Shown in pieces: positions 11,063-59,492 of a stretch of 64,000 nucleotides of DNA. Position numbers and translations under genes: made by a program. The notes under the pieces are model-generated. The model was given only the letters and a program-made list of their open reading frames with translations. It made no database searches and was not told the origin of the DNA. The first letter of the stretch is position 1. Each line of letters begins with the position of its first letter. The stretch spans positions 465,833-529,832 of the forward strand of contig CP055308.1 of assembly GCA_013374855.1 (NCBI GenBank), read 5' to 3'. This DNA is from Candidatus Woesebacteria bacterium. Its GTDB lineage: Bacteria > Patescibacteriota > Microgenomatia > UBA8517.

Positions 11063-11113
11063 AAAGGAATTTCAAAAGCTCCTTCAAGGGAGATTATTCT
11101 AAAAAAGCTGCTT

Positions 11114-11404
11114 TTAAATTTTAGTAATACCTGAGTTTTTCTCTATTTTCGTAGTTTTGGAAAAACGTTTTTCCAAAAAAGCAAGAAGTTTTCCTTTGTC
11201 CAGATCAAAGCGGTTTAGGTAGAAGACATAAAGGATCTCTAGAATACCTAATGTATTGAATATAAGCATTATTAAAAACCACAGAAGCTGCTTTTTTTGA
11301 CTTGATTTCCATAGTGCCAGTCCTTTCCAGATTATAGTCCAGAAAAAAAGAAAATAGATAAATAAAGGATTGTATAGTATTTGAGTGTAGTCAAAATTAT
11401 TCAC
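11114..11404 (-). CDS. small membrane protein (DUF5652-like), hypothetical
   Basis: 96 aa, two TM helices, W/F-rich. Confidence 0.4.
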   Translation of the reverse strand: MNNFDYTQILYNPLFIYFLFFWTIIWKGLALWKSSQKKQLLWFLIMLIFNTLGILEILYVFYLNRFDLDKGKLLAFLEKRFSKTTKIEKNSGITKI

Positions 11405-11483
11405 TGTTTTATTATTTAACAGTAAAGTTTTCTTGTCAAATCTGAAACTTTTTGACTCCTAATAGTTGATGTTTTACAATTTT

Positions 11484-11511
11484 TGTTTCGATGTATTAAT
11501 ACATCGAAACA
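11484..11511. repeat. perfect 28-bp palindrome TGTTTCGATGTATTAATACATCGAAACA (copy 1, CGATG subtype)
   Basis: Read directly from the sequence; exact reverse-complement symmetry. Lies in the divergent gap between 11404(-) and tgt, 56 bp upstream of the tgt ATG, and is preceded by TTTTT. Confidence 0.9.
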
Positions 11512-17666: not shown

Positions 17667-18137
17667 ATGGACTTGGATAGGTTAAGGTCTTTTCTCCAAA
17701 CACAGTCATTGCATTATAAAGTAGGAAAGTTTGAGATCTCACCTTCTTATTCTCAGGCGGCAATTGTTCTCGTGCTTACTTTTTTATTTTTGCTTTCCTT
17801 AGCACGAGTTCGAAGGATGTTTATTCATTGGAGCCTTGGCAGACATTCTATTGCAATTTTTGTGTGGGGTTTTATAGTAGCTCTTATTGTAGAAGGATTC
17901 TTTATTTTAGCAGGCAGAACTATGTTTACCGAAGTTCTAGGATTGAAAAATGTTCCCAAACCAATATCCTCTTTTATTGAATTGGGAAGAAATAGAGTAT
18001 ATCAGGTGCTTGGGGAAAGTGTTGAGATAAAAGAATCTTCAGCTGTAGGAGGGCAGAATGCTGAATCTTTAATAAAAACATTTTTCCTTCTTGATAAGAA
18101 TGAACAGAAAGAAGTGAAAGACAGAATTTGCAGGTAA
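17667..18137 (+). CDS. membrane protein, hypothetical
   Basis: 156 aa with three TM helices; overlaps the prfB start. Confidence 0.4.
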   Translation: MDLDRLRSFLQTQSLHYKVGKFEISPSYSQAAIVLVLTFLFLLSLARVRRMFIHWSLGRHSIAIFVWGFIVALIVEGFFILAGRTMFTEVLGLKNVPKPISSFIELGRNRVYQVLGESVEIKESSAVGGQNAESLIKTFFLLDKNEQKEVKDRICR

Positions 18138-19228
18138 TTTTAAATAAGATGCCGGAGATAAAGTCAAGACTTGAAGAAATAAACTCTCTACTTTCTCAGA
18201 TTAAGAGAAACCTTAATATTGAGGAGAAAAAAGTAAGAATTAGGCAACTGCATGCGGAATCAATTTCTCCTGAATTTTGGAGTGATCAGGAAAAAGCTAA
18301 GTCCGTAATGCAGGAAATAGGCAATCTGACTGATCTTGTTGAAAAGATAGAAAAACTTGAAGGGGAAACAAAGACTTTGCTTGAGTTTGTTCGCGAAAGC
18401 AAAGATGATGATGAATTTGAGGCTGATGTTGCTGCCCTTGAGAAGAAAGTGAAAGAGCTTAAAATTGCTTCTTTTTTAAGTGGTCCCTACGATGCGGGCA
18501 ATGCAATTGTTAGTATCCATGCGGGACAAGGTGGAACGGAAGCTATGGATTGGGCAAGTATGCTTTATCGTATGTATCTTCGCTACGCGGAAAGAAAGGG
18601 TTTTTCAGTTGAGACTCTTGATATAACAGAAGGAGAAGGGGCAGGGATTAAAAGTGTAACTTTTAAGGTTTTAGGACCATTTGCTTTTGGATATTTGAGA
18701 GGTGAAAGTGGCACACATCGATTGGTTCGACAGTCTCCTTTTAATGCAGATAACCTTCGCCAGACTTCCTTTGCTTTGGTTGGGGTTTTACCGGAGATTA
18801 AAGATGTGGACAGCTCTGATATTGTTGTAAAAGATGAAGATTTAGAGTGGCAATTCTTTCGTTCTTCAAGTCAAGGTGGGCAGAATGTTCAAAAGGTTTC
18901 AACTGCTGTAAGGCTTCGTCATGTTCCAACAGGGATTGTGGTAACCTGTCAGACGGAGCGGTTCCAAGAGCAGAATAGAAAAATTGCTTTAGAGCTTTTG
19001 CGTGCTAAGCTTTGGGCGTTTGAGGAGGAAAAGAAAAATCAGAAAGTTCAGGAGATTCGCGGAGAGTATAGACCGGCTTCGTGGGGTAATCAAATAAGAA
19101 GTTATGTTCTTCATCCTTATAAAATGGTGAAGGATTTGAGAACTCAAGTTGAAGCCTCAGATCCGGATGCGGTATTAAATGGAGAAATTGATGAGTTTGT
19201 TGAGGCAGAGATTATAAACAGAAAGTGA
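18128..19228 (+). CDS. prfB: peptide chain release factor 2
   Basis: SPF tripeptide (RQSPFNADNLRQTSFA) and GGQ motif (SSSQGGQNVQKVSTAVRLRHVPTG). Reads as a single continuous ORF with no programmed +1 frameshift site. The true start is possibly the ATG at 18149 (MPEIKSRLEE). Confidence 0.9.
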   Translation: MQVILNKMPEIKSRLEEINSLLSQIKRNLNIEEKKVRIRQLHAESISPEFWSDQEKAKSVMQEIGNLTDLVEKIEKLEGETKTLLEFVRESKDDDEFEADVAALEKKVKELKIASFLSGPYDAGNAIVSIHAGQGGTEAMDWASMLYRMYLRYAERKGFSVETLDITEGEGAGIKSVTFKVLGPFAFGYLRGESGTHRLVRQSPFNADNLRQTSFALVGVLPEIKDVDSSDIVVKDEDLEWQFFRSSSQGGQNVQKVSTAVRLRHVPTGIVVTCQTERFQEQNRKIALELLRAKLWAFEEEKKNQKVQEIRGEYRPASWGNQIRSYVLHPYKMVKDLRTQVEASDPDAVLNGEIDEFVEAEIINRK

Positions 19229-19274
19229 TTTTCTTATTGAAATTTATTTACTATTAGTTTAAAGTGTTTTTGCA

Positions 19275-19760
19275 ATGGAAGAAAACCAGACGCCACCAGT
19301 TCAGCAATCAACTTCTCCATCATCTATCTCAGGCCAAAATTTGGTTAAGAAAGTGAGCCTTGCTAAATTTTCCACCAATTTACCTATTGTAATAGGATCT
19401 GTATTGGTAGTGGTTGCAGGAGTAATCACTGGTTGGTTCTTATCAGGTGGAATAAAAGGCAAAAAGCAAGGGGAAGCAAAGGTTCCTGTTTCTGTTCAGA
19501 CAGAAAAAGAGGCAGGTATTAAGGATGAGTCTGCTTTTCGCGATTCAGCAGAAGGTACTTTGAGACAGGGTGGAATAAATGGAGAGGGGACGCATCATCT
19601 AGAAAGAGAAGGCGGTCCATCACAAAATGTTTATTTAACCTCTTCAGTTATTGATTTGAGCGCTTTTGAAGGGAAAAGGGTCAAAGTTTGGGGGGAAACA
19701 ATTTCTGCGGCTAAGGCTGGCTGGTTTATGGATGTTGGGAGAATAAAAGTTGTGGAGTAA
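19275..19760 (+). CDS. membrane-anchored hypothetical protein
   Basis: 161 aa; N-terminal S/Q-rich stretch, one TM helix, C-terminal extracytoplasmic domain. Confidence 0.45.
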   Translation: MEENQTPPVQQSTSPSSISGQNLVKKVSLAKFSTNLPIVIGSVLVVVAGVITGWFLSGGIKGKKQGEAKVPVSVQTEKEAGIKDESAFRDSAEGTLRQGGINGEGTHHLEREGGPSQNVYLTSSVIDLSAFEGKRVKVWGETISAAKAGWFMDVGRIKVVE

Positions 19761-19809
19761 AAAAGTTTCTTCTTGTCAGACTTCTTTAAATTTAGTATCT
19801 TAAAAGATA

Positions 19810-20469
19810 ATGCTTGTAGTAGAAAATGTTAGCAAGACTTATGGTGATATAGTTGCTTTAAAACCTGTTTCTTTTCGGGCAGACGAGGGCGAGCTTGTTT
19901 TTGTTACTGGTAAATCTGGGTCGGGCAAAACTACTCTTTTAAGGCTCATATTAAGGGAAATCCTTCCTACTACTGGAAAAATAGTTTTTAAAGATGCTGA
20001 TATTTTAACGCTGAAGGGTTCAGCTCTTTCTTCCTATCGCCAAAAAATTGGGGTGGTTTTTCAAGATTTTAAGGTGTTGCCGGAAAAGACGCTTCGGGAA
20101 AATGTTGAAATAGCTTTAGCCGTAGTTGGTGTTCCTTCATCTGAGTGGCAGAAAAGGGTTGATGATGTGCTAAAAATGGTCGGTCTTTTGGAGCGAAGTG
20201 AGCTTTTTCCTGTTCAGCTATCAGGTGGTGAGTTGCAGAGAGTTTCTTTAGCGCGTGCTTTGGTGGTTAATCCTGATATGATTTTGGCAGACGAGCCAAC
20301 AGGAAATCTTGATTGGCAGACATCAGATGAAATAATGAATCTTTTTATAAAAATAGTCCAATCAGGAAAATTGGTAATTATGGCTACGCACAACCTGTCT
20401 TTAGTTGAGAAATGTACTAAAATGGAGAAGGATAAGCTTAAGACAAAAGTTGTAAGTTTAGAGGAATAG
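19810..20469 (+). CDS. ftsE: cell-division ABC ATPase FtsE
   Basis: Walker A GKSGSGKTT, ABC signature LSGGELQRVSLARAL, Walker [12 protein letters not shown]; 219 aa. ftsX follows 4 bp downstream. Confidence 0.9.
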   Translation: MLVVENVSKTYGDIVALKPVSFRADEGELVFVTGKSGSGKTTLLRLILREILPTTGKIVFKDADILTLKGSALSSYRQKIGVVFQDFKVLPEKTLRENVEIALAVVGVPSSEWQKRVDDVLKMVGLLERSELFPVQLSGGELQRVSLARALVVNPDMILADEPTGNLDWQTSDEIMNLFIKIVQSGKLVIMATHNLSLVEKCTKMEKDKLKTKVVSLEE

Positions 20470-20473
20470 TTTT

Positions 20474-21391
20474 ATGGGAATACATTTTAAGACAGCGGTA
20501 AGGAATATAATAAGATCTCCTTTTCAGGCTTTTGCTGCGCTTTTTGTTTTAATGGTTACTTTTTTTATAATTAGTTTACTTTCTGTTGTTCTTTATTCGT
20601 CTGGAAAAGTTTTGTCTTATCTTGAGACTAGGCCTCAAGTTATAGCTTTTTTGAAAGCTGATGCCAAAGAGGGCGATATTTTTAATCTTCAGCAAAGGCT
20701 ATCTTCTGACAAGCGAGTTAAGGATGCCAAATATGTGACTAAAGAAGAAGCTTTAAAGATTTACAAAGATGCAACTTCTGACAACCCTCTTTTAGCGGAG
20801 CTTGTAAGTCCTACTGCTTTTCCGGCAAGTTTGGAACTTTCTTTGGTAAGTTTGGATTATGCCAATGAATTTATTACGGAGCTAAAAAAAGAGCCGATTG
20901 TGGATCAGGTTGGGTTTACAGCAAATCTTGGTGGTGAGGCAACTTTGGAAACAACTATTAATCGTATAAGATCAGTAATAAACAATATTCGTTTGGGGGG
21001 AGTTATTTTTGCTCTAGTTTTGTCTTTGACTTCTCTTTTTGTCTTACTTGTGATTATCAGTTTAAGGCTTATGTCAAGAAAGCAGGAAGTTGATATTTTG
21101 AATCTGATTGGGGCAACTCCCTTGTTTGTGGCAATTCCTGTTTTCCTTGAGGCATTAATTTATGTTTTGGCTGGTGTTTTTTTGGGTTGGCTTTTGGCGT
21201 TTGTTTTGGTATTGTATTTTGCTCCTGCTTTGACTTCTTATTTTGGAGAAATAGAAATTTTGCCAAGGGAAGCCATTTCTCTTTTTAAACAATCTCTTAT
21301 TTTATTGGTTCTGGAATGGATTGTTGGTTCTTTTCTGGCAGTTTTAGGCAGCTTTCTTGCTATTTCTCGCTTGTCTAAGAAGAAGTCTTAG
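20474..21391 (+). CDS. ftsX: cell-division permease-like protein FtsX
   Basis: One N-terminal TM helix, an extracytoplasmic domain of about 100 aa, and three C-terminal TM helices (the FtsX topology); immediately follows ftsE. Confidence 0.85.
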   Translation: MGIHFKTAVRNIIRSPFQAFAALFVLMVTFFIISLLSVVLYSSGKVLSYLETRPQVIAFLKADAKEGDIFNLQQRLSSDKRVKDAKYVTKEEALKIYKDATSDNPLLAELVSPTAFPASLELSLVSLDYANEFITELKKEPIVDQVGFTANLGGEATLETTINRIRSVINNIRLGGVIFALVLSLTSLFVLLVIISLRLMSRKQEVDILNLIGATPLFVAIPVFLEALIYVLAGVFLGWLLAFVLVLYFAPALTSYFGEIEILPREAISLFKQSLILLVLEWIVGSFLAVLGSFLAISRLSKKKS

Positions 21392-22566
21392 TGTGTCTAA
21401 AGATGAAGTTTTTAAAAAGAGCAGCTATTTTTTTAATTGTTTTTTTGGTCTTTCTGTCTTTTTTTCTGCCTGTCTTAGCCCAAAGTGAATTTGACAGAGA
21501 TGCGAGGCTTAAGGAACTGGAAGTGCAGATTAAGCAATATGAGGAAGAGCTTTCTAGATTACGGAGTCAATCTGCTACCCTGACTAATCAGATAGCACAA
21601 TACGATGCTCAAATTAGGCTAGCCGAGCTTCAGATTGAGGAAACTCAAAGAAAAATAGAGCTTTTGACGGGTCGCATAGATCAACTTGAGGTTTCCCTTG
21701 TTGCTTTGACTAAAGCTTTTTCTGAAAGAGCAGTAGAAACTTATAAAATGGCTCGTTTGGGGGATCCTCTTTTTTATGTTGTTGCCTCGCCAAATCTTTC
21801 TGTTGCGGTTTCAAGGTTTCATTATTTAAAGCTAATCCAGCGTTCGGATCAGGAGCTTTTATTAAGGCTTCAATCAGCGCAAAATAATTATCAGGACCAA
21901 AAGCAGGATCAGGAGTCTCTTCAAAAACAGCTTGAAAAACAGAAAGCAAATTTAGATGCGCAAAAGGCAGCTAAAGCTAATCTTCTTGCAATAACAAAAA
22001 ATGATGAAAGATATTATCAACGGCTTTTGTCTCAAGCTAAGAGTCAGCTTGCAGCTTTGAGGCGGTTTGTTGTCAGTCAAGGTGGGGCAACTATTTTGCA
22101 AAATCAAACTAAATGTGATTCTTGGGGTTGCTATTACAACCAGCGGGATAGCCAGTGGGGAACGATAGGAATTGGTGGTTCTTCTTATTCTGTGGCAGAA
22201 TATGGCTGTCTTATTTCTTCAATTGCAATGATTGCCACCCATTATGGAAGGAAGATGACGCCGGCAGATATTGCAACAAACCCAAATTTTTTTGTTCCCG
22301 GCACAGGTTATATTTATCATCAAGCAGAGGGAATGCCTTTTACCATTAGTACTGCTTCTAAAGGACAGCTTGACAGCCTTCTTGCGTCAGGGCCTGTGAT
22401 AGCCGGCCTTTATTCAGGGCCGGATCATTTTATAGTTATCTTGAAAAAAGAGGGGGATAACTACAGAATGCACGATCCTTTTATGCCAGATGGGGCGAAT
22501 CGTCTTTTGACTGAAAAATATAGTGTTTCTGATATTTCCAGCCTTCGTTTGGTTAGTTTTAAGTAG
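21391..22566 (+). CDS. secreted coiled-coil protein with C-terminal C39-like cysteine peptidase domain (PcsB/EnvC-analogous candidate)
   Basis: Signal peptide, then about 200 aa of heptad-rich Q/E/L/R sequence, then AEYGCLISSIAMIATHYG (C39 Cys motif) and GPDHFIVILK (His motif). Abuts or overlaps the ftsX stop. Confidence 0.65.
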   Translation: MCLKMKFLKRAAIFLIVFLVFLSFFLPVLAQSEFDRDARLKELEVQIKQYEEELSRLRSQSATLTNQIAQYDAQIRLAELQIEETQRKIELLTGRIDQLEVSLVALTKAFSERAVETYKMARLGDPLFYVVASPNLSVAVSRFHYLKLIQRSDQELLLRLQSAQNNYQDQKQDQESLQKQLEKQKANLDAQKAAKANLLAITKNDERYYQRLLSQAKSQLAALRRFVVSQGGATILQNQTKCDSWGCYYNQRDSQWGTIGIGGSSYSVAEYGCLISSIAMIATHYGRKMTPADIATNPNFFVPGTGYIYHQAEGMPFTISTASKGQLDSLLASGPVIAGLYSGPDHFIVILKKEGDNYRMHDPFMPDGANRLLTEKYSVSDISSLRLVSFK

Positions 22567-22663
22567 GGTATTTATTCTCTAGAAATAGTTGTTTTTGGTT
22601 TTCTAACAATTGTGATCCTTTTATCTTTTTTATTTTTGTCTGTCCTGTTGTAAACTTGTTAAT

Positions 22664-22695
22664 TTTGTATCAATGTATTAATACATTGATACAAA
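22664..22695. repeat. perfect 32-bp palindrome TTTGTATCAATGTATTAATACATTGATACAAA (copy 2, CAATG subtype)
   Basis: Exact dyad; 67 bp upstream of the 22762 HTH gene; preceded by a T-tract. Confidence 0.9.
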
Positions 22696-22761
22696 TAGAA
22701 TGTCTGGAAGGTTTGTTTAACTTTGTGGTATAAATAAAATAGGTTTTGATGACTTTTTAAA

Positions 22762-23208
22762 ATGGCGCAGGTCTCTAAAGTTCCTGTAAGAAAAGAAGTA
22801 TACCTTAGGGTATTTGAAGTTTTTGTGAGTACTATTTCGCGTCTTAAAGATAAAAAAGATATTGTTGTTTTTTTAAATGAATTTTTTACTCCAACAGAAA
22901 AGATTATGTTTGTCAAAAGATTTGCTATACCTATTCTTTATGAGAAAGGCTATACCTATCGTGATATTTCAAGTGTTTTGAAAGTTAGCACAGCCACTGT
23001 TAGTCGGGTTATTATTTTTTACAACTTGAGTGACGAATTTAGAGAATTAATTAAAAAATTTTTGGAGGAGGAGAAAACAAAGAAATTTTTACTTGATCTG
23101 GGTGATATTATTGCATCTGCTGCAGGAGTGAGTGGAGCTAAAGCCTCCTCCTGGTTTGCTTTGAAGAAGGAAATTAAAAAGAAAAAGGCAAGAAATAATG
23201 TTTTTTGA
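22762..23208 (+). CDS. TrpR-like / YerC-YecD family helix-turn-helix DNA-binding protein
   Basis: The N-terminal half matches the YerC/YecD (TrpR-related) pattern FLNEFFTPTEKIMFVKRFAI...LYEKGYTYRDISSVLKVSTATVSRV, with the HTH at YRDISSVLKVSTATVSRV. The C-terminal 50 aa are K/E-rich. Confidence 0.6.
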   Translation: MAQVSKVPVRKEVYLRVFEVFVSTISRLKDKKDIVVFLNEFFTPTEKIMFVKRFAIPILYEKGYTYRDISSVLKVSTATVSRVIIFYNLSDEFRELIKKFLEEEKTKKFLLDLGDIIASAAGVSGAKASSWFALKKEIKKKKARNNVF

Positions 23209-23248
23209 TTTTGTTATGTTGCTGATTTTAGAGTTTGATGTTTTTTTC

Positions 23249-23278
23249 TTGTATCAATGTATTAATACATTGATACAA
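23249..23278. repeat. perfect 30-bp palindrome TTGTATCAATGTATTAATACATTGATACAA (copy 3, CAATG subtype)
   Basis: Exact dyad; 40 bp downstream of the HTH gene stop and 22 bp upstream of the 23301 ORF; preceded by TTTTTTT. Confidence 0.9.
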
Positions 23279-23300
23279 ACAAGCTTAGATGTCTTAGGAT

Positions 23301-24527
23301 TTGCCTTTGAAATTTAATATTTTATTTAATTCTTTTAATATTAAACATATAATGAAAAAAAATTTTTTGTTTTTTGTTTTTGGGGGTCTGTTTTTTGTTT
23401 TTCTTGTCTTTGAGTTTTGTTCTCCCGTTTCGGCTGCTTTTAATTTTTATATTTCAGATGTAAATCCTAAAGAGGTTTTTTCGAAAGAACAGGAAATTGA
23501 AGTAAAAGTGGTTGTAGAATCTTTGCCTATTTCGAGCGATTCTTTTTTTAGGGTTTCTATTAAAAAAGGGAACTCGTTTGTTGGTTATATGATGATTAAT
23601 AATGAGTGGGTGAAGATGGGTTCTTTATCGTCTGATAAAGAAAATAATTTGTGTACTCGTTATTATAAGGTTAATTCTGATGGAGTTTATGATTTTAGGT
23701 TGAAAATAGGTAGTGATGTTGAGATTGCTAATGGGGAATATATAGTTAAAGTTCATAGATTTCCTTATAATTATAATGGTAGTGGCAAGTGTGGCGATTA
23801 TGATTCTTCTGAAGAACAAGTGGAGTTTAAGGTAAATGTTATTCTTCCTACTCCTTCTCCCACTCCAGCACCTACTCAAAGTTCAACTTCTTATCCAAGT
23901 GCATCTTCTGCTACAGTCAAAATTTCTCAACCTAAAGATCAAAATGGTGGAGATATTCTTGGATCACTGAAAATTTATATTGATGGTAGTTATGTTGATA
24001 AATCTGCACCGAAAACTTATACTTTTGGTGATGGTAAGACTTGTGGATCAAACAATGTTCCTTGTGGTTTTGGAACACATACTTTTAAAGTAGAAAAGAC
24101 AGGCTATCTTCCTTGGGTTAAGACTGCAGATATAACTGTCGGTAGTAATTATGAATTTGATCCAGTATTGATTTTAGCCTCTCCTTCTCCTACGCCAACA
24201 ATTAAATCATCTCCTACTGCTACCGCTTCAGCAACTCCAAAATCAACCCCGGTTGACATTTCCACATCGACAGCATCCGGAATTTTGGCAGAAGATGTTT
24301 TTTCAAATGAATCAGTATTGGGTGCAGAAAGCATAGAAAAAACTCCTCAACCTGAAGAAAATATATCAGCTGATCCAAAACTGAAAGCAGCAGCCTTGTT
24401 TTTTATAACAGCTGGTGTTTCTTTTTTGGGGTCTGCTGTGTATGCTTATATAAGGTCTAAAAATAAAAAAGGGAAGAATGAAGAGAAATCAGACGAGGTT
24501 GAAGAAGAAAGTGACGAAAATCATTAG
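23301..24527 (+). CDS. cell-surface protein, hypothetical (signal peptide, PSPTP linkers, C-terminal TM anchor)
   Basis: N-terminal hydrophobic signal, two PT-rich linkers (LPTPSPTPAPTQ, SPSPTPTIKSSPTATASATPKSTP), and a C-terminal TM helix with an acidic tail. Confidence 0.55.
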   Translation: MPLKFNILFNSFNIKHIMKKNFLFFVFGGLFFVFLVFEFCSPVSAAFNFYISDVNPKEVFSKEQEIEVKVVVESLPISSDSFFRVSIKKGNSFVGYMMINNEWVKMGSLSSDKENNLCTRYYKVNSDGVYDFRLKIGSDVEIANGEYIVKVHRFPYNYNGSGKCGDYDSSEEQVEFKVNVILPTPSPTPAPTQSSTSYPSASSATVKISQPKDQNGGDILGSLKIYIDGSYVDKSAPKTYTFGDGKTCGSNNVPCGFGTHTFKVEKTGYLPWVKTADITVGSNYEFDPVLILASPSPTPTIKSSPTATASATPKSTPVDISTSTASGILAEDVFSNESVLGAESIEKTPQPEENISADPKLKAAALFFITAGVSFLGSAVYAYIRSKNKKGKNEEKSDEVEEESDENH

Positions 24528-24939
24528 CCTTTGGTTGCCCCCAATTTTATGGATGGGGATTATTTTCTTTTTAAGCTCTCGCCCAACCATTAAGACTACT
24601 CAAATCTACTGGCAGGATTTTTTAATTAAGAAAACGGCTCATTTTGTTGAATATGCAATTTTATCTTTTCTTTATATTCGTGCTTTCTTGGGAAGCAGTA
24701 TGTCACAAAAAAAATCTTTTATTCTTGCATTTTTGATAAGTCTTGTTTATGCGATAAGTGATGAATATCACCAATCTTTTGTGCCGGGAAGAGAACCGAG
24801 AATAAGAGATGTGGTGATTGATTCAATGGGTGCTCTTTTTGCAATTTATCTTGTCGCTTTTAGGCCTTCTTGGGCGAGAAAGCTGGTTGGAAAGTTGATA
24901 CCTTATAAAGTATTAGGAGAATTGAAGAGTAAAAATTAG
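24478..24939 (+). CDS. VanZ-like family membrane protein
   Basis: LWLPPILWMGIIFFLSSRP ... AISDEYHQSFVPGREPRIRDVVIDSMGALFAIYLV matches the VanZ family. The start overlaps the upstream gene by up to 50 nt, so an internal GTG start is possible. Confidence 0.75.
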   Translation: MKRNQTRLKKKVTKIISLWLPPILWMGIIFFLSSRPTIKTTQIYWQDFLIKKTAHFVEYAILSFLYIRAFLGSSMSQKKSFILAFLISLVYAISDEYHQSFVPGREPRIRDVVIDSMGALFAIYLVAFRPSWARKLVGKLIPYKVLGELKSKN

Positions 24940-25086
24940 TTAAGAATTAAAATTAGATTGTGGATTATAATAGATTAGTGGGTTTGAGGGCAACTCAAAA
25001 GGTGGAAGTAAAATTAAAAAATCATTGCTAAGGTTTTGGGTTATTCTTGTTGAATTTTTGCTTTGTTTGTTCTAAATTAAAAAAGG

Positions 25087-25722
25087 ATGGAAAAAAGAAA
25101 AGCTTACGCTTTCTATCTTGATGTAGCGGGTGAGGTCTTAATTATATTTTCTTTTCTTATTCTGTTTTTCACCTACGGTCCTGTCGCTAAAGAAGAGGTT
25201 GCTTATCAGGTAAGGCAGACTTTAGATAAGTCAATCAAGACAAAAGAAATAGAGCCTCCCAATTATGAGTTTTCTATAGTTGTTCCCAAACTCTCTGTTT
25301 CTGCACCTGTTTTTGCGTCGGTTAATCCTTTTGACGAGAAGGAATATCTGCCTGTTTTACAAAAGGGTGTTGCGCATGCTAAAGGTTCAGCACTTCCCGG
25401 TCGGTTTGGTAATACTTATCTTTTTGCTCATTCAACTGATGCCTTTTACAATGTGGGCAGATACAATGCTGTTTTTTATCTTTTGGGTAAACTTGAAAAA
25501 GGAGACAAGGTATACATTTACTATAATAACCAAAAGTACACGTACGAAGTAACCGATAAAAAAGTGGTTCCTCCCACTGAGGTTTCTTATCTTGGCAAAT
25601 CTGGCAGGGGTAACACCTTAACTCTTCAGACTTGTTATCCTCCAGGAACCACGCTGAAGCGTCTTGTGGTATTGGCAGAGATGGAAGGAGATGTTAGTTT
25701 TGATTTTCCCTTAAAATATTAA
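25087..25722 (+). CDS. sortase (transpeptidase) family protein
   Basis: N-terminal TM anchor, catalytic His in LFAHSTDAF, TLQTCYPPGT (TLXTC active-site Cys) and a downstream Arg (KRLVVLAE). Confidence 0.85.
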   Translation: MEKRKAYAFYLDVAGEVLIIFSFLILFFTYGPVAKEEVAYQVRQTLDKSIKTKEIEPPNYEFSIVVPKLSVSAPVFASVNPFDEKEYLPVLQKGVAHAKGSALPGRFGNTYLFAHSTDAFYNVGRYNAVFYLLGKLEKGDKVYIYYNNQKYTYEVTDKKVVPPTEVSYLGKSGRGNTLTLQTCYPPGTTLKRLVVLAEMEGDVSFDFPLKY

Positions 25723-32238: not shown

Positions 32239-32263
32239 TTGGACAGGATCCGACCCTGTCCAG
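32239..32263. terminator. GC-rich hairpin between convergent genes (possible bidirectional terminator)
   Basis: TTGGACAGG atccgac CCTGTCCAG: a 9-bp stem with a 7-nt loop, lying between the 32225(+) and 32270(-) stops. The flanking U-tracts are weak. Confidence 0.35.
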
Positions 32264-53188: not shown

Positions 53189-53220
53189 TTTGTTTCGATG
53201 TATTAATACATCGAAACAAA
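53189..53220. repeat. perfect 32-bp palindrome TTTGTTTCGATGTATTAATACATCGAAACAAA (copy 4, CGATG subtype)
   Basis: Exact dyad; in the gap between 53135 and the operon starting at 53233/53326. Confidence 0.9.
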
Positions 53221-53325
53221 GTTAGCTAATAATTGCGGGTTTTTAAAAATTTTTCTAGTGCGATCCTTCAGTTGTTTTTCAGGATTTGGTTTTATATTTG
53301 TTTTAACAAGAAGGGAGGTGAGAGT

Positions 53326-59051: not shown

Positions 59052-59081
59052 TTGTTTCGATGTATTAATACATCGAAACAA
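59052..59081. repeat. perfect 30-bp palindrome TTGTTTCGATGTATTAATACATCGAAACAA (copy 5, CGATG subtype)
   Basis: Exact dyad; 22 bp downstream of the 59030 stop and preceded by a T-tract. Confidence 0.9.
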
Positions 59082-59492
59082 TGGCAAGGTTTATAATGTT
59101 TGTAATTGGGTTTGATGATAATTTAGAAAAAGGATTGAAGAGTTCTAAGACTTCTTTTTTGAAGAAAATGACTTCGGAGAAGGCAATTGAAATGGGTGAG
59201 TAGAGCTGTCTTATCCTTCGACTTTTCCCAGGTGGCATTGGTTGACGAAATGTTTTCAATTTCAATATATAATAAGGGGTATTAAAAACAAGCTTGGTTG
59301 TCTGAGAATTCAGTTGGACAGAGATTAATAATGTTTTGAATTTTAGTTCGAAGACCCATCTTACAGAAGCACTAAGAAATATTTGGATTTAGCTTAAAAG
59401 ATTTGATGAAGATGAACAATGACTTTATTTGGATTATGTTGAATGATGATCTCTTGTTTACTTTAACCATTCTCTTGTTATAACATTAAAGT

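Follow-up and report, generated by a model that had tools for sequence, protein, structure and literature searches.

A TrpR/HisR-like gene bracketed by 28-bp palindromes across Microgenomates: a probable case of autoregulation

The gene and its palindromes

We analysed 64,000 nucleotides (below, the window) from the genome of a Candidatus Woesebacteria bacterium (contig CP055308.1, positions 465,833 to 529,832 of the forward strand). The subject is a small gene for a TrpR/HisR-like helix-turn-helix protein, which starts at position 22762 and lies between two perfect palindromes, or dyads; three more dyads of the same family are found elsewhere in the window (Table 1). Nearly all genes are carried by one strand, the G+C content is 33-40%, and a scan of the window against Rfam has returned two tRNAs and no other known RNA family.

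Table 1. Coordinates of the regulator gene, the dyads and the putative promoter element in the window
Feature	Position	Strand	Description
Gene for a 148-aa TrpR/HisR-like helix-turn-helix protein	22762..23208	+	Pfam PF01371, PDB profile matches, AlphaFold2 model and Foldseek
Upstream dyad, subtype TGTATCAATG	22664..22695	.	perfect palindrome of 32 bp, to which the 22762 product is predicted to bind
Downstream dyad	23249..23278	.	30-bp perfect palindrome; 28-bp core in common with the upstream copy
Putative extended -10 of the regulator gene, TGTGGTATAAAT	22724..22735	+	TATAAA at 22729-22734; promoter function predicted from sequence
Solitary dyad, subtype TGTTTCGATG	11484..11511	.	56 bp 5' of tgt (11567)
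Solitary dyad, subtype TGTTTCGATG	53189..53220	.	5' of the operon for a two-component system (TCS) and MacAB-type efflux
Solitary dyad, subtype TGTTTCGATG	59052..59081	.	22 bp 3' of DUF5666, the last gene of the TCS-MacAB operon

The upstream dyad (TTTGTATCAATGTATT/AATACATTGATACAAA; here and below the slash marks the centre) is 100% self-complementary and ends 66 nt 5' of the ATG, while the downstream dyad (TTGTATCAATGTATT/AATACATTGATACAA) begins 41 nt 3' of the stop codon at 23206-23208. The solitary dyads (TGTTTCGATGTATT/AATACATCGAAACA) differ from this pair in two mirrored positions per arm. All five are intergenic and are spread over 48 kb. An initial annotation of the window had placed the flanking pair and the other dyads (5' of tgt and at both ends of the TCS-MacAB operon) at just these positions, and had described the regulator gene as the only one of TrpR type; we agree on both counts, as a tblastn search with the protein matches itself alone in the window.

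The dyads are rare. The 28-mer of the flanking pair occurs twice in the window and in none of 100 shuffled versions of it, and a degenerate 28-mer spanning both subtypes matches at exactly 5 sites, with 0 expected. The 14-bp core ATGTATTAATACAT, with at most two mismatches allowed, returns the same 5 sites only (0.34 expected from shuffles). A half-site scan at the same threshold finds the 10 arms of the 5 dyads and one match at chance level, so that with these two scans we found neither degenerate dyad copies nor isolated half-sites in the 64 kb.

A subfamily of TrpR/HisR-like proteins

The 22762 product matches the Pfam family Trp_repressor (PF01371) over residues 19-84 with 46.1 bits, the cut-off being 27. 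It reaches 31.5 bits against the NCBIfam model for YerC/YecD (TIGR02531, cut-off 42.2), for which the homologs at the loci that we label L004 and L080 score 36.1 and, as a borderline case, 42.8. Against the equivalog model for E. coli-type TrpR (TIGR01321) it scores 20.7 bits, below the cut-off of 67.25. A profile of the family finds the PDB entries 3FRW, 3KOR and 3G1C at E values from 3e-11 to 6e-10, with a coverage of residues ~12-105 only.

The AlphaFold2 model, calculated from 122 sequences, consists of eight helices and has a pLDDT of 81. Its top matches in Foldseek are 3FRW, 3KOR, 3G1C, 1TRR and 1TRO (probability ~1.0, target TM 0.69-0.78), which superpose with a root-mean-square deviation of 2.4-3.8 A over ~95 residues; 1TRO and 1TRR are DNA complexes of E. 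coli TrpR. This agrees with the all-helical TrpR fold, whose helices D and E form the helix-turn-helix. A C-terminal extension of ~45 aa (two helices, residues ~105-145), with a conserved GGxKxxxW...E.KKK tail, has no counterpart in the TrpR/HisR structures. R53, which we take to align with R54 of TrpR, and a TPTE motif are invariant in the family.

How widespread is this type of protein? An indexed search returns 916 clusters (90% identity) at E <= 1e-5, and an exhaustive search of 50%-identity representatives returns 119 clusters at <= 1e-30 and 1345 at <= 1e-10. Nearly all members are 145-152 aa long, PF01371 is present in all 120 listed homologs, and the named relatives are Woesebacteria, Shapirobacteria, Gottesmanbacteria, Levyibacteriota and Patescibacteria, which marks the host as a bacterium of Microgenomates type. 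Judged by these homologs, the 22762 product belongs to a large, Microgenomates-wide subfamily (about 147 aa) of TrpR/HisR repressors; a literature search has found no paper on a subfamily of such proteins in the candidate phyla radiation (CPR). It is a member of the TrpR family by Pfam and by fold, but not an ortholog of either HisR/YerC or TrpR, since score cut-offs, length, operator and targets all fail to agree.

The palindromes accompany the gene across lineages

In the closest orthologs (L001, L002, L003 and L027; 77-80% identity) a perfect dyad lies on each side of the gene, while the remaining intergenic DNA has diverged. These loci share with the window the genes for FtsE, FtsX, a coiled-coil peptidase, the regulator, a surface protein, VanZ and a sortase. 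At the two positions of the window pair they have dyads of the CGATG subtype or of a hybrid form, and therefore the CAATG subtype, which the initial annotation had treated as specific to the gene, is not a property of the regulator gene. For the same reason we rejected a division into CAATG dyads belonging to the gene and CGATG dyads belonging to a regulon.

We then followed the association beyond the close relatives in two directions, from the DNA and from the protein. A scan with a 20-bp core of the dyad against 185,579 genomes, one per species, has returned 23 loci, mostly in metagenome-assembled genomes (MAGs) of the CPR; in 4 of them a homolog of 43-48% identity lies less than 250 bp from the dyad. 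For example, at L022 the homolog is bracketed by dyads as in the window, and L004 has another neighbourhood (RecJ, CCA-adding enzyme, GatB/YqeY). Four matches outside the CPR (Ferruginibacter, Desulfosporosinus, Pirellulaceae and Nitrososphaerales) are, in our judgement, accidental hits of a self-complementary pattern. The scan of metagenome contigs that started from the protein has given 80 loci with homologs of 35-51% identity. In most of these a palindrome of ~28 bp is found 0-20 bp 5' of the ATG, with a second one close to the stop codon (-11 to +8 nt, counted from its end).

To put a number on this without a motif model, we looked for words common to the 93-nt stretches that precede the start codon and follow the stop codon in 67 non-redundant loci (35-80% identity). 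An identical 12-mer or longer word is common to both flanks in 51/67 loci, and a 20-mer or longer in 25/67; control window pairs from the same loci share a 12-mer or longer in 5/909. In most of the 16 loci that fail the 12-mer test the core is still visible by eye. The two flanking dyads are identical in 28/28 positions in 11/34 loci, in direct orientation. Inspection by eye shows in nearly all loci a lineage-specific version of one composite motif, TGyTnynATGATTT/AAATCATnrnArCA. Outside the flanks we see ~2 extra dyad copies in ~270 kb, that is, about 1 solitary site per 100 kb, and therefore the dyads are not a general intergenic repeat.

The initial annotation had linked the TrpR-like protein with the dyads and had named the co-occurrence of both in related genomes as a check. 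The matching flanks, and the bracketing of 35-80% homologs in several unrelated neighbourhoods, support this link.

The gene order is conserved as well. RF2, FtsE, FtsX, a PcsB/EnvC-like gene and the regulator stay together down to ~40% identity, and dyads flank the regulator both in the FtsEX-PcsB-like context (L107 and many more) and in others (RecJ/CCA in L004; further ones in L108 and L109). The conserved synteny, together with the presence of the dyads across contexts, argues for a vertically inherited core gene and not for a cassette. The widespread order, as seen at 18128-25722 of the window and at 5464-10444 of L107, is RF2, two small open reading frames (ORFs), FtsE, FtsX, the PcsB/EnvC-like peptidase and the TrpR-like gene, often followed by genes for a surface protein, VanZ and a sortase. 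The synteny with FtsEX and the PcsB-like gene may hint at a role of the regulator in division or in the envelope. In the window, the surface-protein gene probably starts later than predicted, at the ATG at 23352 (signal peptide MKKNFLFF) and not at the TTG at 23301.

We noticed that the labels of several MAGs are at odds with their content. L004, L006 and L010-L014 are labelled 'uncultured Gammaproteobacteria', L009, L015, L017 and L021 'Saccharibacteria', and L018 'Melioribacter roseus'; these loci show the Microgenomates type of synteny (FtsX, peptidase, TrpR-like gene, LTD surface protein, VanZ) and the dyad family. The conflicting labels are probably a result of mis-binning or of automatic mislabelling.

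Composition of the site

The centre of the dyad differs between lineages (ATGTATTAATACAT, ATGAATTAATTCAT, ATGATTCGAATCAT, ATGATTTAAATCAT, ATGATATATATCAT and ATGATACGTATCAT). From 194 pooled arms we derived the half-site consensus T1 G2 y3 T4 n5 y6 n7 A8 T9 G10 A11 T12 T13 T14. The information is concentrated at positions 1-4 and 8-14, with A8-T9-G10 at nearly 2 bits each, and there is little of it at positions 5-7. TG stands at positions 1-2 and again at 9-10, and the 28-mer may therefore be seen as a pair of 20-bp units, TGnT-N12-AnCA, that overlap with an offset of 8 bp. Such units match the operators of TrpR and HisR, and the offset matches the register of tandem TrpR dimers, which suggests two dimers per dyad.

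At one locus (L042) the two dyads around a single gene have different centres, ATGAATCAATTCAT upstream and ATGTATTAATACAT downstream, with identical outer arms. This suggests that the central 8 bp may not be critical for recognition. Across the family we see trends of covariation between recognition helix and dyad core (VST-T with ATGTATTAATACAT/ATGAATTAATTCAT; VS[LFSA][PT]T with ATGATTyrAATCAT). We did not use these as proof of recognition, because of many exceptions, phylogenetic confounding and the two centres of L042.

Position of the two sites relative to promoter and gene

Among the 35 loci with a sigma-70-like promoter match, the -10 element lies inside the upstream dyad in 20, and the predicted start of transcription in 6 more (26/35). 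A perfect TTGACA (6/6) is often found just outside the dyad, 17-18 nt from a -10 in the left arm or in the centre. For example, L083 and L090 read TTGACA-N17-TATCAT-N7-ATG, which implies a leaderless or near-leaderless mRNA, and L075, L081 and L108 read TTGACA-N18-TAAAAT. By analogy with TrpR and HisR, a dyad over the -10 or the start, as in most lineages, would be the classical geometry of autorepression by promoter occlusion. The window lineage is arranged differently: the upstream dyad lies 55-85 bp 5' of the ATG, with the extended -10 in between. L001, L003 and L027 have kept this element, TGTGgTATAAA(A)T; it lies 3' of the dyad centre, at distances that vary from locus to locus (48-66 bp).

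The downstream dyad is kept even when the next gene is convergent, in L015, L081, L082, L086, L092, L096, L097, L102 and L105 according to ORF calls and in L107 according to the depositor's gene calls. The site therefore belongs to the regulator gene, and we rejected a main role as operator of the next gene. The upstream and the downstream dyad are 471-584 bp apart (median 482).

A probable autoregulatory mechanism

The best overall explanation, which we hold with fairly good confidence, is that the TrpR/HisR-like protein recognises the 28-bp dyad and regulates its own gene through the two bracketing sites. The 22762 product, with whatever ligand it may have, would recognise the composite dyad as double-stranded DNA. 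Two dimers per dyad would be the likely stoichiometry, and the C-terminal helices are candidates for the contact between dimers. In most lineages the 5' site, lying over the -10 or the start, would lead to direct autorepression. The most likely roles of the 3' site are that of an auxiliary operator, through cooperative binding or a loop of about 480-580 bp, and that of a protein roadblock that would shield the gene from read-through in tightly packed, co-directional genomes. In the window lineage, regulation would proceed by looping between the sites, by an upstream contact or by blocking read-through from the ftsEX-peptidase operon. The three other dyads of the window would be further binding sites, making up a small, fast-evolving set of targets that includes tgt and the envelope-stress/efflux operon.

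Several observations weigh against this explanation. The case for binding is built throughout on the co-localisation of gene and dyads. In the window the upstream dyad sits ~50-70 bp 5' of the extended -10 and does not overlap the promoter, so direct occlusion is unlikely in this genome. The spacing between the two sites shows no helical phasing (R < 0.19) and thus offers nothing positive for looping, which we propose as a hypothesis only. Furthermore, all five dyads of the window are perfect and there are no degenerate sites, which would be unusual for a regulon. The solitary dyads are not conserved at the orthologous TCS-MacAB operons of relatives (67-71% protein identity; L110, L111, L112 and L114); in particular, the dyad at 59052 is absent at the orthologous position in all four. 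Solitary and intragenic sites fit poorly with classical promoter control, and it is hard to see what function a regulator would serve that has no conserved targets besides the start and the end of its own gene. Finally, arm positions 4 and 7 always vary symmetrically in the window lineage (three variants, 11 sites, at most one mismatch). A dimer does not require symmetric change in a spacer that it does not contact, and this suggests selection for a hairpin or cruciform, or symmetrisation by template switching. Candidates for such an additional symmetrising force are template switching, gene conversion between copies and cruciform-prone selection.

Weighing these points, we still think it probable that the 22762 product binds the dyads and that this binding feeds back on its own gene. 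The autoregulation proposed in the initial annotation is thus supported by the bracketing and by the usual position of the upstream copy on the -10 or the start in homologs; in the window lineage, whose dyad sits off the promoter, it would have to work in another way.

Solitary sites: possible roles as regulon, landmark or boundary

The other dyads had been thought to form the regulon of the protein. This has not been borne out, as solitary sites are rare, are absent at the TCS-MacAB orthologs and are in part intragenic; that they form a conventional regulon now seems rather doubtful to us. In other CPR genomes we found in-frame dyads of the ATGTATTAATACAT family within uvrA (L026, 6896-6923), recX (L005, 7188-7215), a Mur ligase gene (L011, 6402-6429), a nucleoside triphosphate (NTP) transferase gene (L013, 1290-1317) and a FemAB-like gene (L007, 884-911). 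They are translated as ..YRCINTSIQ.. or ..IDVLIHRY.., in uvrA and recX without obvious change in length. L005 and L022, the latter with the bracketed regulator, come from one MAG. Genes near the sites are often related to envelope or division (sortase, surface proteins, Alr, Mur ligase, FemAB, acyltransferase, the FtsEX synteny), which is a hint only.

The TCS-MacAB operon of the window consists of a small ORF and genes for an OmpR-type response regulator, a histidine kinase, a YknX-type membrane fusion protein, an ABC ATPase, a MacB-type permease and DUF5666. In relatives, other palindromes are found next to the orthologous operon. L110 and L114 have a different perfect 28-bp palindrome, ACTATCAATACATC/GATGTATTGATAGT, ~160 bp 5' of it (L114 130-157; a cut copy in L110 at 1-21). 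It has the outer TATCAAT of the window dyad, but further inside it reads ATACAT, the inversion of the ATGTAT in the window, and the ATG that is invariant in the family is missing. It may be a diverged site of the same protein or a site of some other factor. We were not able to find anything comparable 3' of the operon in these two loci. In L111 and L112 there are G+C-rich palindromes (GGACAGGGTCGGACCCTGTCC) at both ends of the operon.

These G+C-rich palindromes form a second family (GGACAGGATCCGACCCTGTCC / ACAGGGTCSGACCCTGT), with a copy in the window at 32240-32262 that fills a 44-bp gap between convergent genes and with paired copies at the operon ends in relatives (L111 5718, 5777, 11608 and 11667; L112 3961). 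The family looks like terminator hairpins or hairpins of the REP (repetitive extragenic palindromic) type. Intergenic short direct repeats, CCCATAATTCATAATTCAT and CTTTCTACTTTCTACTTT, are abundant in L110 (5860-6260) and in L114 (1-320 and 6010-6375). In the window, the first gene of the TCS operon probably starts at the ATG at 53323 and not at 53233, which gives a protein of 131 aa as in L110, L111 and L114. The regions 11063-11483 and 59082-59492 (~410-420 bp), beside solitary dyads, contain no long ORF on the + strand and no Rfam or tRNA match; a minus-strand ORF of 97 codons at 11114-11404 is of uncertain reality.

Sites that are few, perfect, fast-moving and partly intragenic are unlike a classical metabolic regulon, and they leave room for a role as roadblock, boundary or chromosome mark. 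In its boldest form, which we regard as unlikely on present evidence, this would mean that the unit of dyad, gene and dyad is an undescribed, Microgenomates-wide system of site-specific DNA marking and not just an autoregulated repressor. A tetramer-forming TrpR-like protein would sit on a handful of perfect 28-bp sites (promoters, gene ends and even in-frame positions in essential genes, for example uvrA and recX) and act as a boundary, roadblock or chromosome-organising element, the sites at its own gene being points of nucleation and feedback. Rapid symmetric co-evolution of protein and site would explain why each lineage has its own perfect palindromes.

A related explanation keeps the site-specific DNA-binding protein but makes its function mainly non-transcriptional: like ParB-parS, Tus-Ter/RTP, Noc or MatP, the system could provide the chromosome with landmarks, boundaries or roadblocks, from a few perfect sites scattered over intergenic and coding DNA. 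It would fit sites that are few, perfect and all-or-none and for which we found no conserved regulon, in-frame sites in genomes that also carry the flanked gene (for example the MAG of L005 and L022), the frequent synteny with ftsE-ftsX and the PcsB/EnvC-like division gene, and a 3' site kept before convergent genes. On the other hand, the promoter overlap in most lineages is already a sufficient transcriptional reason for the upstream site, the fold of the protein is not that of ParB, Tus or RTP, and several lineages do not keep the synteny with the division genes. We consider this explanation improbable, and prefer the autoregulated repressor.

A site in duplex DNA or a hairpin

The dyads could instead be structural hairpins in RNA or DNA (terminators, stabilisers or REP-like elements) that mark the ends of transcription units, their place beside the regulator gene having nothing to do with binding. 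As RNA, the window dyads do fold into hairpins of 13-14 bp with -14.7 and -15.9 kcal/mol; they are found on either side of the regulator gene and of the TCS-MacAB operon, at whose boundaries relatives have other palindromes, the G+C-rich ones, and the symmetric changes in the window lineage would also be expected. But A+T predominates in the stems (2-4 G-C pairs in an arm of 14 nt), the dyads are followed by ACAAATAGAA and ACAAACAAGC and not by a U-tract, and a terminator scan of the window does not call them, so that we rejected an intrinsic terminator.

The mismatches between arms argue against RNA hairpins more generally. In 97 flanking dyads we counted 18 of the sense G.U type, 22 of the antisense type and 49 that are non-wobble, so there is no G.U bias. 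They cluster at positions 5, 7 and 14, which would be mid-stem or loop-closing in a hairpin but are the uninformative spacer and centre of a protein site. Several lineages keep asymmetric dyads such as TGTTATCATGATTTAAATCATTAGAACA, and the copies before and after the gene then point the same way. Together, mismatches and asymmetry favour a sequence-specific reading of duplex DNA. In addition, the upstream copy lies on -10 and start elements, and the dyads track one gene family across contexts at a low background density, unlike a general boundary element. We have rejected the reading as RNA hairpin or terminator on the grounds of the missing U-tract, the missing G.U bias and the mid-stem mismatches, and we judge structural hairpins as a whole to be very unlikely.

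Unlikely alternatives: a mobile element or coincidence

Even less probable, and hardly to be reckoned with, is a mobile or selfish cassette of dyad, gene and dyad (similar to REP/RAYT, to Xer/dif modules or to an insertion sequence with palindromic ends), for which the solitary dyads would be empty or relic sites. It would account for two copies in direct orientation that are often identical throughout, and for solitary copies that turn over fast and also occur inside genes. The length of the dyad resembles that of Xer sites, which have 28 bp (11-6-11) with a variable 6-bp centre. But the synteny with RF2, FtsE, FtsX and the PcsB-like gene speaks for vertical inheritance, there is no transposase or recombinase in or beside the module and no catalytic domain in the protein, and the copy number is very low. 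Searching the viral contigs of IMG/VR, we found neither the dyad nor a homolog; together with the synteny, this has led us to reject a phage or mobile origin. A dif site occurs once per chromosome, as against several dyads per 64 kb here; the sites of dif modules are carried by plasmids, alternate in orientation and are bound by Xer recombinase. We rejected Xer/dif and dif modules since there are five chromosomal copies in 48 kb, fully symmetric, which track a helix-turn-helix gene and not a recombinase.

That the dyads bind another global factor and flank the gene by accident, the alternative named in the initial annotation, draws on the fact that only 2/5 copies in the window lie beside the gene, but it is effectively refuted, with next to no chance of being right, by flanking that recurs in dozens of independent lineages and contexts (51/67 loci against 5/909 controls) while the dyad sequence changes.

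Comparison with known systems

Gene regulation in the CPR or Patescibacteria, which cannot be grown alone, is almost unknown, and the gene and its dyads offer a concrete, testable pair of protein and DNA that is found class-wide, with a defined 28-bp motif for each lineage. Identical composite operators at the start and at the stop of a regulator's own gene would be an unusual architecture among bacterial repressors. The TrpR/HisR family, so far a family of amino-acid repressors, would gain members in organisms in which those pathways are mostly missing. If the sites within genes and at convergent ends are functional, they may point to a roadblock or boundary mechanism in minimal genomes.

Among the systems with which we compared the locus, REP/RAYT also has a gene flanked by copies of a palindromic repeat that are present elsewhere in the genome. 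Here, however, the gene codes for a helix-turn-helix protein and not for a Y1/HUH transposase, the gene is inherited vertically in a conserved synteny, and the copy number is tens to hundreds of times lower; with 5 copies in 64 kb, and ~2 extra ones in ~270 kb elsewhere, we rejected a REP/RAYT element (REPtron). ParB-parS, Tus-TerB and RTP-TerI/II of B. subtilis have few near-perfect sites, in coding or non-coding DNA, and the gene is adjacent to one of them and autoregulated through it. The dyads resemble them in being few, near-perfect and next to the gene of the protein, but the folds are unrelated and Ter sites are asymmetric.

The looping repressors (lac O1-O2, gal OE-OI, deo) combine a main operator at the promoter with an identical site a few hundred bp downstream, as would be the case here. 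The difference is that the second site comes just behind the stop codon of the gene for the repressor itself, the pair enclosing the whole gene, and that we found no sign of phasing or of tetramerisation. E. coli TrpR (1TRO, 1TRR) shares with the 22762 product the fold (TM about 0.7) and with its locus the 20-bp operator frame TG...CA and, presumably, autoregulation. Tandem TrpR dimers (1TRR) bind in a register offset by 8 bp, and this is the offset of the two TGnT quarter-sites in each arm of the dyad. On the other hand, the dyads have no CTAG boxes, the host lacks the context of an amino-acid regulon, and there is a second operator behind the gene.

The nearest system by sequence and structure (3G1C, 3FRW, 3KOR) is HisR (YerC) of the Firmicutes, another small, all-helical helix-turn-helix protein with lineage-specific palindromic operators. 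YerC of B. subtilis has been identified as HisR, which binds palindromes of 20 bp and represses in a histidine-dependent manner; about half of the genomes examined in that work have a candidate HisR site in front of hisR itself (PMC9413887). The HisR operators, cacTTTAnnnnnnTAAAgtg or TGTAnTArnnnnyTnTTACA, are 20 bp long and lie 5' of genes for the biosynthesis and transport of histidine; palindromes of the form TGTA-N12-TACA, also of 20 bp, are the operators of TrpR and of proteobacterial HisR (PMC9413887). In contrast, the 22762 product is ~45 aa longer (148 vs <=~100 aa), with two extra C-terminal helices, and falls below the NCBIfam cut-off; its site has 28 bp instead of 20, follows another consensus and is found at both ends of the gene. 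There are no histidine genes among the putative targets in the window, where the adjacent genes are tgt, those for the surface protein and sortase, and the TCS-efflux operon. In summary, three features are new with respect to the known TrpR/HisR systems: the protein is extended at its C-terminus, the operator is a double one of 28 bp, and two copies of it bracket the gene almost universally.

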